The notes under the pieces are model-generated. The model was not told the DNA's origin. It was given only the letters and a program-made list of their open reading frames with translations, and did not search any database. Below, one piece after another: positions 1,262-34,311 of a stretch of 64,000 nt of DNA (the stretch's first letter is position 1; each line of letters starts with the position of its first letter). The position numbers were made by a program, and so were the translations under genes. Source of the DNA: Chloroflexota bacterium (GTDB taxonomy: Bacteria > Chloroflexota > Dehalococcoidia > Lucifugimonadales > UBA3495); the NCBI GenBank assembly GCA_027623675.1, contig JAQBVF010000003.1:1-64000 (forward strand), written 5' to 3'.

Positions 1262-3067
1262 TTAAAGCCCTATGGCGTAACAGGCGCGGCGGGGGTCGCC
1301 ACCGGTGGCCAGGTGGCCCGTCTGCGGGTCTCTTGCCGAGACGGTGGCGCCCAGGCCGCAGTTGGCGGCCCAGCCGATCTGATGGCCCAAGGCCCTCAGG
1401 GCGTCGGCCGTGCTCTCCGGGATGCCCGGCTCAAGGTCCAGGCGTCCGGGCAGGTAGGTGTGGGGGTAGAACGAGTTCTCCACGCTCTGGCTGGCGAACC
1501 GTGGCGCCTCCACCGCCTGCTGCGGGTCCATGCCGAAGAGCAGCACGTTCAAAACCAACTGCACGTTGGCTTGCGCCTGGTTGTCGCCGCCGGGACAACC
1601 GATGGTCATCACCGGTTGGCCGTCCTTGCGGGCCATGTAGTTGATCAAGGTGGTGCGGGGGCGCTTCCCCGGCTCGACCACGTTGGGGTGGCCCTCCTCG
1701 CAGTTGAACATCTCGATGCGGGTGCTGAGGCAGCAGCCCAGCTCCGGGAAGAACACCGACTTGGCGAAGGCCCCGCCGCTGATGGTGCCGCAGACCATGT
1801 TGCCCTGGGCGTCCAGCACCGACACGTGGGTGGTGCCTTCATGGGACGACGGGTCGGATGCGCCGTTGGACGCGCCGGTGGCGGCGGGCTTTCCGGTGGG
1901 GACCGCGCCGTTCCGCTTGGAGTGCTTCCAGGGGTCGCCGGGGGCGGGCTGCTCCGGGTAGGCGCGCTCCGGGTCGATCAGGCCGGCACGTTCGGCGGCG
2001 TATTCCTTGGACAGCAGGCCGTCGATGGGAATCTCGGCGTAATCCGGGTCGGCGTAGTATGCTTCGCGGTCGCCGAAGACCTGCTTCAACGCCTCGCAGA
2101 CGGTGTGGATATAGGTGGGCGAGTTGTGTCCCATGGCCTTCAGGTCAAAGTTCTCCAGGATGTTCAGCGTCTGCTGGAGCATGGGCCCCTGGCTCCAGGT
2201 GTCGTGGCCCAGGATCTCGTGTCCGGCGAAGGTGCTGGAGACCGGCTCGCCGAACTGACTCTTATAGTTTGCCAGGTCGTCCATGGACAGTATCCCGCCG
2301 ACTTTCGCCGACGACTCGACGATGGTCTTGGCCACCGAGCCTTTGTAGAAGACGTCCCGCGCGGCTTGGAGTCCGGCCTTCCTGTCGCCGGAGACGGCCG
2401 CGGCGGACATGGCTTTGAGGGTGTTCGCCAAGCCGGGCTGCACCAGAAGGTCGCCGGGCTGGGGCACCTGCCTGTCGTTGAAGAACACGTCCCAGCCGCC
2501 GGGCGGGTAGTTGTCGAACTGGACCGGCGTGCTCTTGGACTTGAGCCGCTCCAGCATGTATTCGTAGTGGGGGATGCCGTTCTCCGCGTAGTCGATGGCC
2601 GGCGCCAGCACCTGGTCGATGGGCAGGCTGCCATACCGCTCCAGAAGGGATATGAACGCCTCGACGACGCCCGGCACGGTGAACGAGAAGTGGGCCTTGT
2701 CACCAGGGCCGGTGGGGATGCGGTCCATGCCCTGGGACTTGTAGAAGTCGGCCGTGGCCTTGCCGGGAGCGCCGCCCTGGCCGCTCAGAGAGAGCATCTC
2801 ATCGCTGGCCGCGTCGTAGACCATGAACACGCCCTCCGCCGCCAGGGAGTACGACGCGATGGGTTCGATGACCGCGGCAGCGAAACCGGCGGCGGCCATG
2901 GCGTCGAAGGCGTTGCCGCCGTTCATCAGCATCCGCATGCCGGCCATGGACGTCAGGTAGTGTCCGCTGGAGATCACGCCCTTGGTGGACCGGACCACCG
3001 GACGCCCGGTCTCGGGCAGCTTAAGGTCTCCCTGTTCCAGTTCATGATGCGGTGTCTGGATGGCCAT
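1262..3067 (-). CDS. ggt: gamma-glutamyltransferase family protein (Ntn hydrolase)
   Basis: GGNAFDA, TVPG and FYKG motifs, the catalytic TTHVSVLD segment, and PGKRPRTTL/GCPGGD/GDPRR; GGAG RBS. Confidence 0.9.
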   Translation of the reverse strand: MAIQTPHHELEQGDLKLPETGRPVVRSTKGVISSGHYLTSMAGMRMLMNGGNAFDAMAAAGFAAAVIEPIASYSLAAEGVFMVYDAASDEMLSLSGQGGAPGKATADFYKSQGMDRIPTGPGDKAHFSFTVPGVVEAFISLLERYGSLPIDQVLAPAIDYAENGIPHYEYMLERLKSKSTPVQFDNYPPGGWDVFFNDRQVPQPGDLLVQPGLANTLKAMSAAAVSGDRKAGLQAARDVFYKGSVAKTIVESSAKVGGILSMDDLANYKSQFGEPVSSTFAGHEILGHDTWSQGPMLQQTLNILENFDLKAMGHNSPTYIHTVCEALKQVFGDREAYYADPDYAEIPIDGLLSKEYAAERAGLIDPERAYPEQPAPGDPWKHSKRNGAVPTGKPAATGASNGASDPSSHEGTTHVSVLDAQGNMVCGTISGGAFAKSVFFPELGCCLSTRIEMFNCEEGHPNVVEPGKRPRTTLINYMARKDGQPVMTIGCPGGDNQAQANVQLVLNVLLFGMDPQQAVEAPRFASQSVENSFYPHTYLPGRLDLEPGIPESTADALRALGHQIGWAANCGLGATVSARDPQTGHLATGGDPRRACYAIGL

Positions 3068-20567: not shown

Positions 20568-21143
20568 CTACTGATCAAGCATCTCCAAGGTCTTCTCCTC
20601 CAGCACTTCGCTGTTCAACGCTCCGGTCCACTTGTTGTGAATCGTGCCGTCGGCATTGATGAATATGGTGGTGGGCATACCCAAGACTTGGTATTTTTGG
20701 ACCACGTCGCTGTCCGGGGTGAAACCGGCAGGGTAGGTCAAGTCCAGTTCCCGCAACAGGTCCTTGGCATCATCCTGAGTGCCCAATCCGGTGAACTGGC
20801 CCAGGTCGATCCCCAGCAAAAGCGCCCGGTCTTTGAACTTGTCATTGAAAACTTCCAGGTCGGGCATCTCGGCCCGGCATGGGGGGCACAGTCCCGCCCA
20901 GAAGTTGAGCACGATGGGCCGTTCGCCGATCAGGTCTTGGAGAGTCACTTCCTGGCCGCCGACCACGTCATCACCCTGAAACATGGTGATGGCGAAATCG
21001 GGCGCCTGGCTACCTGCGCTGCTGCCGCAGGCGATCGCCGCCAACGTCAGCACCAACGCCAATGGGAGCAGGAACCTCACCTTGCTTTTCTTGATCGCGG
21101 CTCTCCCGCCGAGAGTCGAGTTGTCTATCGAATCGCCAGTCAA
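20568..21143 (-). CDS. TlpA/ResA-like thiol-disulfide oxidoreductase lipoprotein
   Basis: Lipobox AIAC, APDF, LNFWAGLCPPCRAEMP, GMPTTIFI. Confidence 0.88.
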   Translation of the reverse strand: MTGDSIDNSTLGGRAAIKKSKVRFLLPLALVLTLAAIACGSSAGSQAPDFAITMFQGDDVVGGQEVTLQDLIGERPIVLNFWAGLCPPCRAEMPDLEVFNDKFKDRALLLGIDLGQFTGLGTQDDAKDLLRELDLTYPAGFTPDSDVVQKYQVLGMPTTIFINADGTIHNKWTGALNSEVLEEKTLEMLDQ

Positions 21144-31234: not shown

Positions 31235-32497
31235 TCAGGCGTTCGCGTCCGCGTAGGGCGAGCCGGCGGCATACGCCCTGGGAACCAGGATCAGCCGGCT
31301 GAACTGCTGCAGGCTGCGGTTATCGCTGTCCTTCCACCGGTCTTGCAGGGTGTAGAAGATCTTCCCGGCCGCCGTTTCCTTCCAGAACCAGTCGGTCAGC
31401 ACCGTGCCCGGCGCCGTCGCCTGGCCCGGTTGGGCCGCCACGGCCTCCAAGTAGTAGGCTTTCAGGTCCTCCACGGCCAGTTTCAGCAGGTCCAAAACCG
31501 GCATGTCGCCGCGGGGGCTAGCCGGGGAGTCATCCTCAAGGAATACCCCGATGAACCGGCCCAGCGCTTCTGGGTCCAGGCCGCTCGCGCCGACCGTTGT
31601 CCTTCCGCTGTTCTTCACCGCCAGGTCGTACCACGACCGCAATTCCCTGACCTCGTACTGCAATGTTTCGTTCAGCTGTTCCATATCGTTCAGCTCGATA
31701 TATTGAGCCGGAAAGTCGACCGGGCAGGCCAGGACCGCGGGTTGATCTGACGCCACGGGGGCATCGTCCGGGAAATCGGTCAATACCGGCCCGCTTGGGG
31801 CGTCCAGCAGTTCCAATACGGCGCGGAGCACCCGTGTCTGCCAGGCTGGGTCTCCGGGCACGCCCAGAGGTCGTCCCAGTTCGAAGGGCACCCACATCGC
31901 TCGCGGTGGCCTGATCTTCTCGGTATGTTCCCGGATCAGGCTGATATGGGTCGTCGCCAGGCCCTCTTCTTCCAGATAGTGTGACAGCCCGCCTACGGCG
32001 CGCGTGCAGGCCGGTCAAACGGGGACCAGCAATACCGTATCGACGTTGTCCTGTTTGAGCAGGGTGGCGATCCGGCGCGCCGACGGCTCCATGCGCCTTG
32101 GGTCTGCCGCGCCCATGAAGGAGTAATGGAAGTCTGCCATGCTGCCGACGACGCCCGCCTGAGCGAGTTCGCGGAGCCGGTCCAACGGGAACGCCACATT
32201 CCAGTCCTGCTGGAACCCGGTGCGGTCGAAGTTGGTTGAGATGTGGCTCATGACCAGATCTTCGGCGGCGATGTCGCCGGGTATCACTCGGTAGTCGGCG
32301 GGCCACTCCTGGGAGGTGGCGGACTGGATGGTGAAGGGGCTATCGTCCCGCCGGTGCAGGCCCGCCGTGGTGATGATGGCCACGCGGCGTTCACTGAGGG
32401 GCGGCCCCGAAACCCAAGGCTGGGTCTCGAATACTGGGCAGTCCATCCGGCGGAGAGAGGCCGCCTCGGCCTCGTCCAAAGCTTCAAGTCGGACCAT
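31235..32497 (-). CDS. glycine/sarcosine/betaine/D-proline reductase selenoprotein B-like (PrdB/GrdB family) protein with UxxC (Sec at 32015-32017) and C-terminal extension, ~420 aa
   Basis: ORFs 32015..32497 and 31235..31897 are in frame across one TGA: RRVAIITTAG..SHISTNFDRTG..NVAFPLDRLRELA..HYSFMG..VDTVLLVPV-U-PACTRAVGGLSHYLEEEGLATTHISL..RPPRAMWVPFELGRPLG. Confidence 0.88.
31985..32014 (-). promoter_or_regulatory. candidate bacterial SECIS after the PrdB-like UGA
   Basis: Minus strand UGA-C-CGGCC-tgcacgcg-CGCC-GTA-GGCG-GGCTG; the G-starting apical loop lies 18 nt after the UGA. Confidence 0.5.
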
Positions 32498-33711: not shown

Positions 33712-34311
33712 TTACCCGCCCAACTCGGCGATCAAACTGGCCACCGTTGGCCGGTCCACCGGCGTCTGGCCGCGGTGTTCGAAGATGACGATCCCATCCT
33801 CATCCAAGATGAAATCCCCGCCAAGTTGCCGCCAGTCGCTGGCCGCATGCTGGTACCTACGCCCTCTGGCGAAATGCTTCACGTAGGTCCAGATTGTCTT
33901 TAGCGAGAAGACCTTTGCCCAGGCGCCTTGTGACAGGCCGTAGGCTAGGTAAACGTCCCTTTCGGGGTCGGACAGAATGGGATAGGGCAACTGGAGCTGC
34001 CGGGTGAGCTGGAAAAGCCGGTCCCTCGGCTCAAAGGAGATGGCCACCACCTCGGCGCCTTTGGATTGAATCTCGCCGTGCCGTTGCCGCAACTGCGACA
34101 GATGCTCTCTTCAGGGCACTCAAGCGAAATGCCTCAGAAATACCAGCAGCGCCTTGCGGCCTCGCAATTCCTGGAGGGATAGATACTTGCCCTCAGGCAT
34201 GGCCAGGGTGAAATCAGGCGCGGCGAGGCCCAGCAACGCCGGTTTGAGGGCATCCGGGTTGCGGCTCATACGCCGCTCATAATTAAGAGCATCTTTTTCA
34301 TGTCGAGGCAC
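33712..34311 (-). CDS. peroxiredoxin-like (AhpC/TSA, SelL/PRXL2-like) selenoprotein with UxxU motif (Sec at 34120-34122 and 34111-34113), ~199 aa
   Basis: ORFs 34120..34311 and 33712..34092 are in frame: APDFTL..LSLQELRGRKALLVFLRHFA-U-VP-U-REHLSQLRQ..VVAIS..PYPILSDPERDVY.AYGL..QLGGDFILD..DRP. Confidence 0.85.
34085..34100 (-). promoter_or_regulatory. candidate bacterial SECIS serving the UxxU codons
   Basis: Minus strand TGTCGC-AGTT-GCGGCA; the loop is 16 nt after UGA2 and 25 nt after UGA1, with G at loop position 2. Confidence 0.55.

Follow-up and report, generated by a model that had tools for sequence, protein, structure and literature searches.

A hidden SelL-related gene of marine Dehalococcoidia with two in-frame UGA codons and one probably shared SECIS-type hairpin

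Described proteins with paired selenocysteines

Selenoprotein L (SelL), which has been found in fish, invertebrates, and marine bacteria, forms a diselenide, a bond that is hard to reduce (PMC2397514), and its two selenocysteine (Sec) residues share one eukaryotic SECIS (PMC3316567, PMC4989117). An archaeal peroxiredoxin-like protein with two Sec residues has also been reported (PMC4989117). In bacteria, a 'Prx-like thiol:disulfide oxidoreductase' of PF00578, with one or two Sec residues in a UxxC or UxxU motif, is listed together with other UxxU families (PMC9312934, PMC13188914), and a single downstream SECIS has been proposed, without experiment, for UXXU-type Group 4 [NiFeSe] hydrogenases (PMC13582414). 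The literature comparison also took in PMC7539508 and PMC2874816.

The gene described in the present study lies in a window of 64,000 nucleotides (the whole stretch of DNA that was analysed; contig JAQBVF010000003.1, positions 1 to 64,000, of the Chloroflexota assembly GCA_027623675.1) and is a member of an already described kind, namely, SelL and its bacterial relatives. The NCBIfam model NF040769, 'SelL-related redox protein', matches its product at 160.9 bits (cut-off 120) over profile positions 3-172 of 173, and there is no family-level difference from this family, most of the sampled Chloroflexota members of which are UxxC (40/65 loci). The original SelL paper is reportedly that of Shchedrina et al. 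in 2007, and this description may already cover the present clade and its SECIS. As in SelL, two predicted Sec residues are placed two residues apart on a thioredoxin/peroxiredoxin-like fold (PMC2397514, PMC3316567, PMC4989117, PMC3473315). The novelty implied by an earlier reading, made from the sequence alone, was too high, given that this protein belongs among the relatives of SelL and that SelL has already been reported from marine bacteria (PMC2397514). The locus does not represent a new kind of system, and its value is that of a test case for bacterial double-UGA decoding. The analysis adds a corrected gene model, a host group, and comparative evidence for one fixed in-frame SECIS covering both codons while the second of the two positions alternates between residues; bacterial SelL-type proteins gain named hosts and a defined RNA element.

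The bacterial gene differs from SelL in that its predicted SECIS lies within the reading frame, at two different distances from the UGAs. A metagenome search with a pattern of UxxU codons, from which the hairpin was left out, returned at least 119 stretches; the matches listed comprised at least 30 bacterial-type and at least 33 eukaryote-type genes, one stretch that was too short, and 55 chance matches, which were discarded because BLASTP returned nothing for them at E 1e-7 or below. Genes were regarded as eukaryote-type when they had a long N-terminal extension or an intron-like break, and L184 was assigned to the bacterial-type set by hand. The eukaryote-type set (loci L099-L216, at least 33 metagenome loci) shares the motif RHxxULPURxH, and two of the three members tested pass NF040769. 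These copies are extended at the N-terminus by about 130-200 codons or contain introns, some being broken by an intron-like GT just after the motif, and carry no in-frame hairpin, whereas the bacterial gene has a predicted in-frame SECIS. Rfam SECIS_1 was detected in the 3' UTR of one of the ten eukaryote-type loci tested, the flanks of which are short (L149, 989-1053). On the tree, the eukaryote-type clade, which is our own grouping and not a set of named SelL sequences, is not the sister of the present gene, and its only database match was an uncharacterised snail protein.

Regarding the other bacterial families, the 'Prx-like thiol:disulfide oxidoreductase' has the same PF00578 fold and a UxxU motif, but the category is broad. 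The two sequences displayed in the supplement on the GOS 'Prx-like 2' with UxxU (PMC2398784) have different motifs and suggest a separate family, and the motif strings of the present gene gave no hits in four supplement files of that paper. The UXXU hydrogenases (PMC13582414) are unrelated metal-binding proteins with CXXU as their single-Sec form, in contrast to UxxC here, and tRNA-ReC, which is frequent in their genomes, was not found in the present 91% complete genome. The open-access literature yielded no paper showing experimentally either SelB reloading on one hairpin or a bacterial diselenide reductase, and no paper containing both 'SAR202' and 'selenoprotein'.

Gene model and decoding of the two UGA codons

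The coding strand is the minus strand, on which 34311-33712 contains no TAA or TAG when TGA is read as U and gives ...LRHFA-U-V-P-U-REHLSQLR.... This translation bears out the two in-frame UGAs of the sequence-only reading (F-A-U-V-P-U-R-E-H), which had named no strand, and both UGAs align, as it had also proposed, with the conserved Cys residues of homologues at the CxxC of the family. The plus-strand reading of 33712..34311 is interrupted by stops and is not the gene. The features are as follows.

33712..34269, minus strand: predicted coding sequence of the SelL-related thioredoxin-fold selenoprotein, 185 aa, with U50 and U53 (translation with TGA as U; NF040769; dN/dS)
34120..34122, minus strand: UGA1, predicted Sec50, at the first Cys of the family CxxC; predicted attacking residue
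34111..34113, minus strand: UGA2, predicted Sec53, at the second Cys of the family CxxC; predicted resolving residue
33714-33712, minus strand: stop codon TAA
34085..34100, minus strand: putative bacterial SECIS-type hairpin, 6-bp stem, loop AGUU at 34094-34091 (covariation; RNAalifold)
34279..34306, minus strand: sigma-70-like promoter match, weak (9/12 consensus; 0.3 expected by chance)
33712..34092, minus strand: 126-aa fragment as reported by gene callers, with a TTG start within the SECIS loop and without the active site
34270..34311, minus strand: 14 codons before the ATG, not coding (coding score, dN/dS, stops)

The start is ATG 34269 and not GTG 34311, and the length of approximately 199 aa given previously is corrected to 185 aa: the 14 codons before this ATG have a non-coding score and a dN/dS of 0.88, and contain in-frame stops in nine of the 13 loci checked, all 13 of which have an ATG at the matching position. 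The promoter-like match ends 9 nt upstream of the ATG, which suggests that the leader of the selenoprotein mRNA is very short or absent. The DNA upstream of the gene is similar in most same-genus orthologues.

Among the 1790 TGA-N6-TGA sites found genome-wide, three have coding-like in-frame flanks, and the SelL-like gene is the only one of these three that outscores the opposite strand, which is more than chance would give. Full-length orthologues were present in 13 of 40 related genomes at 59-80% identity, and both TGAs are kept in every one of the 13. The dN/dS values of 0.16 before the motif region and 0.11 after the hairpin (11 same-genus sequences) indicate that purifying selection acts on both flanks of the TGAs. 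A sequencing error, TGC or TGT having been read as TGA, had been named as a possible flaw and is excluded by the conservation in the 13 orthologues; in addition, the contigs, not the reads, of two runs of one study, one of which is possibly the source, match the gene with 0 differences.

This conserved gene of marine Dehalococcoidia is stored in databases almost only as the 126-aa fragment without the active site. Of the 120 database hits listed, 116 were C-terminal pieces of 110-141 aa and four were full-length, at most 42% identical, and the names on the database homologues were Chloroflexi, Dehalococcoidia, and SAR202. These records would fit a pseudogene, or a gene with the downstream fragment as its sole product. 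Moreover, UGA is a working, ordinary stop elsewhere in the genome (TGA terminates 287 of 1376 coding-like ORFs, and prfB is present), and one orthologue, L017 (G006), carries three additional nonsense codons together with a weakened hairpin and is apparently decaying. We nevertheless regard this explanation as very improbable: both TGAs, and no others, are common to the orthologues, the region upstream of the TGAs has the low dN/dS given above, and the 126-aa piece lacks the active site and scores only 100.1 bits, which is under the NF040769 cut-off. Besides L017, one further genome has a C-U-x-x-G form (L024), and the locus fetched from one more genome contains the C-terminal part only (L023).

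If UGA were recoded genome-wide as Trp or Gly, the four WxxW and two WxxC homologues in the database would be accounted for, but these may stem from gene calling under code 4. Such recoding is already effectively refuted by the stop-codon counts, with many genes terminating at TGA in the presence of prfB; tRNA-Sec is the only tRNA with a UCA anticodon, the homologues have Cys in both columns, and we give the idea practically no credence.

The case made from the sequence alone depended on Sec machinery being encoded in the genome, and selA, selB, selC, and selD are all present, all above curated cut-offs. The tRNA-Sec is single and canonical, with an 8-bp acceptor and a 5-bp T stem, the one selB found carries winged-helix domains, and selD itself contains a TGA. 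tRNA-Sec was also detected in 15 of 18 other UxxU-bearing genomes, the three misses being genomes that are 78-88% complete, and selB in all five of the UxxU-bearing genomes tested. A SECIS-dependent tRNA-ReC (selC*) might instead place Cys at one or both UGAs, giving UxxC, CxxU, or CxxC. This tRNA occurs in about 56% of genomes with UxxU hydrogenases (PMC13582414), the present genome has two CysRS genes, and it is 91% complete, and therefore the missing tRNA-ReC is no proof of its absence. However, only one selC-like tRNA, the canonical one, and one ordinary tRNA-Cys were found, in an Rfam search that scored 150 of 640 candidates; three weak 'SeC' calls that appeared when the threshold was lowered lack a tRNA fold, selB is single, no RNA family adjoins either cysS, selA, or selB, and the second CysRS retains an anticodon-binding domain match. 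We consider decoding as Cys to be distinctly unlikely and conclude that the gene product is very probably a selenoprotein with Sec at both UGAs.

Two separate observations were made on the genes of this machinery. The second cysteinyl-tRNA synthetase (G000:C2:134145-136427, plus strand, L250) has a GT2-like domain fused to its C-terminus. Near a contig end (G000:C22:6037-6091), the 3' 55 nt of tRNA-Sec recur as an 89% copy, which may be the attachment site of an element integrating at selC.

The hairpin and its probable reach to both codons

The hairpin TGTCGC-AGTT-GCGGCA at 34100-34085 has the sequence described previously, and its loop begins, also as described, 25 nt past TGA1 and 16 nt past TGA2. 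The stem is 7 bp in most orthologues and 6 bp here. The covariation analysis that had been suggested for this hairpin was positive: across 38 distinct Dehalococcoidia sequences, all seven pairs change on both sides, 89.5% of cells are paired, and none of 500 shuffles reached the observed pairing, a count that overstates the significance in that the shuffle ignores relatedness. Slid registers scored far lower, and RNAalifold returned the same helix. Synonymous change is suppressed over the hairpin codons, with a pS of 0.13 versus 0.58-0.61 elsewhere. Folding energy alone is unremarkable (z 0.10 for the 54-nt region and -2.87 for the 19-nt core), and a stem of this type arises in 4-6% of synonymous encodings of the peptide. 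The support for the hairpin as a SECIS is, thus, comparative, consisting of covariation and suppressed synonymous change.

The published bacterial consensus comprises a loop of 3-9 nt with G in the first two places, a stem of 4-16 bp, and a distance of 16-37 nt from the UGA (PMC13188914). The energy in the published model is -7.5 kcal/mol; the present stem has -7.3 kcal/mol when it stands alone and -8.3 kcal/mol in a second folding. With its AGUU loop, 6 bp, and distances of 25 and 16 nt, the hairpin falls within this consensus (PMC13188914), in which its energy is borderline and 16 nt is the lower edge.

In the metagenome matches listed, a G-loop hairpin at +25 was present in 30 of 30 bacterial-type genes (AGUU in 29 and AGGUU in one), whereas none of the 33 eukaryote-type genes had more than 2 bp around that 4-nt loop, three having other weak hairpins nearby; therefore, encoding this peptide does not of itself create the hairpin. 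The only CxxC member among the genome loci (L096) has neither the loop G nor the stem. In viral contigs, the pattern gave ten matches, none of which was homologous beyond the motif.

The 65 genome loci comprise 40 UxxC, 21 UxxU, two UxxS, one UxxG, and one CxxC; TGA occupies the UGA1 column in 64 of them and the UGA2 column in 21. No CxxU member was found among these loci, which came from the relatives, class, and phylum searches, and so there is no natural case of the hairpin serving position 53 alone. The main hairpin is at the same place, +25 from the first UGA, in 42 of 45 distinct UxxU sequences and 34 of 41 single-U relatives, and the UxxC relatives L051 and L052 have an almost identical one. 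Five of six motif variants with C-U-x-x-G, UxxS, or U-L-H-U (L024, L083, L087, L230, L233, and L238) still have 4 bp or more of stem flanking the loop at 25 nt past the first UGA, the exception being L238. A second hairpin special to UxxU was not seen in the comparison of 45 UxxU with 41 single-U sequences. Twenty further candidate Sec genes of this genome were compared: seven have their best loop starting 16-17 nt from the UGA and four 23-27 nt from it, and AGUU(A) loops occur among the single-Sec candidates at 16 nt as well as at 25 nt. Since the same hairpin accompanies UxxC and UxxU, no second one is peculiar to UxxU, and both spacings are in use, one SECIS probably serves both UGAs. Three of the 45 UxxU sequences are under the hairpin cut-off used and no hairpin below -4 kcal/mol was seen in three of those 20 candidates, so the SECIS rules of this genome are not fully captured.

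In the simplest reading of this arrangement, SelB would load twice on one hairpin: SelB-GTP-Sec-tRNA would bind the single AGUU-loop hairpin, Sec would be delivered first at UGA1, 25 nt from the loop, and then, after the ribosome has moved on by three codons but has not yet melted the stem, at UGA2, 16 nt from the loop. Both codons may alternatively be Sec with UGA2 served by another route, for which an additional or different RNA fold, a signal located upstream, or continued binding of SelB could be considered. Seven of the 45 UxxU sequences have a weak hairpin, either mutually exclusive or lying further 3', that might be taken for this, and SECIS-independent routes are mentioned in PMC13188914; however, further 3' hairpins occur at the same rate in single-U relatives (7/41), at scattered positions with none in common, and the 16-nt geometry is common in the single-Sec genes of this genome, which makes a separate route unlikely. 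The gene provides a short construct for the question of how a distance-dependent bacterial SECIS can serve two UGAs three codons apart, with the natural UxxC relatives (L051 and L052) as controls. If a single hairpin does serve both codons, the gene would be a natural system for showing that SelB reloads on one hairpin within three codons, and also for finding a bacterial diselenide reductase.

Predicted protein, position 53, and other candidate selenoproteins

A single-sequence AlphaFold model (pLDDT 35) was set aside, and a model based on an alignment of 112 sequences (pLDDT 89) was used. In this model, strand 39-44, the first core strand, is followed by helix 51-62, and the motif lies where this helix begins, which is the usual site of CxxC. 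Among solved structures, BCP/peroxiredoxins and ResA come closest, with 18-26% identity (Bcp4 3hjp, TM 0.74), and the SelL-like protein differs from the BCP/PrxQ, AhpE, and ResA/TlpA folds by a helical insert at approximately 112-145, which is modelled with lower confidence. Peroxiredoxins are defined by a PxxxT/SxxC motif and a catalytic Arg. At the place of this motif, the present protein has V-F-L-R-H-F-A-U, a Gly precedes the TFxID strand where the BCP-like L031 and L034 have Arg (read by eye), and peroxiredoxin HMMs score far below their cut-offs. The motif and the Arg are missing, so the earlier description as an AhpC/TSA peroxiredoxin-like protein is correct for the fold, as the nearest structures indicate, but not for the catalytic motif.

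The protein is most likely a cytoplasmic selenol/diselenide oxidoreductase; no signal peptide is evident by eye. The substrate attacked by U50 would be oxidised, either a disulfide or a peroxide, after which U53 would resolve the intermediate to an intramolecular diselenide, which we infer at U50/U53 by analogy with SelL and the recycling of which would need a low-potential reductant. Synteny with a divergent amidohydrolase-UDG block holds for 11 of the 14 loci of close orthologues (L010-L023), but all five distant UxxU loci lack the block, so the neighbourhood gives no functional lead.

Of the 268 proteins examined, 152 end short of the motif or otherwise miss it, 21 are represented by rows in which a fragment is spuriously aligned internally, and 95 have a true motif alignment; in 77 of these 95 the motif is CxxC. 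Full-length distant homologues, in which residues other than Cys at both positions had been expected to speak against the double-Sec reading, thus mostly have Cys at both. The sampling is biased, the TGA forms having been collected by searching DNA and the Cys forms by searching protein databases.

In trees with the motif columns masked, bacterial UxxU rows are interleaved with UxxC and CxxC rows. A single clade was rejected for the 19 bacterial UxxU rows (p-AU 8e-7) and for all 25 UxxU rows (p-AU 3e-36), both in quick trees of 59 rows selected from a larger set, and the starred branches force at least three changes at position 53. Position 53 thus appears to have switched several times under a fixed SECIS; gain and loss of U53 cannot be told apart because the trees are unrooted. 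Based on these comparisons, we somewhat favour the view that one in-frame SECIS, which keeps its distance of 25 nt from the first UGA across Chloroflexota, acts on the codon 9 nt closer as well, with Cys and Sec at the resolving position having toggled repeatedly. A fixed SECIS that reaches the closer codon would therefore allow a point change to convert the resolving residue from Cys to Sec or back, without a new RNA signal.

The genome is rich in selenoprotein candidates, with 19 of the 20 UGA read-through candidates that were fetched (L054-L073, an incomplete list) matching a Pfam family, including UGSC, DsbA, SelW-like, deiodinase-like, PrdB-like, AhpD, and rhodanese. A second hidden selenoprotein candidate lies 1.2 kb from the SelL-like gene at 31235-32497 on the minus strand; it has a PrdB/GrdB-like domain and a TGA at 32015-32017, where V-P-V-U-P-A-C joins two called ORFs into about 420 aa, and its hairpin is weak. 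A read-through candidate of approximately 310 aa with a TGA at 3046 and a hairpin at 16 nt (L056, G000:C21:2782-3747, plus strand) has no Pfam or NCBIfam match and is possibly an uncatalogued selenoprotein. In L069 (G000:C27:20494-23172, minus strand), a TGA at 21114 in the context S-S-C-G-D-I-U, either Sec or an ordinary stop, separates a repeat lipoprotein with CHRD-like domains from a DNRLRE domain. In the coding sequences of this genome, Gln-Leu is rarely encoded as CAGCTG (6.5%) despite CAG and CTG being the most frequent codons, and this rarity may reflect avoidance of a restriction site.
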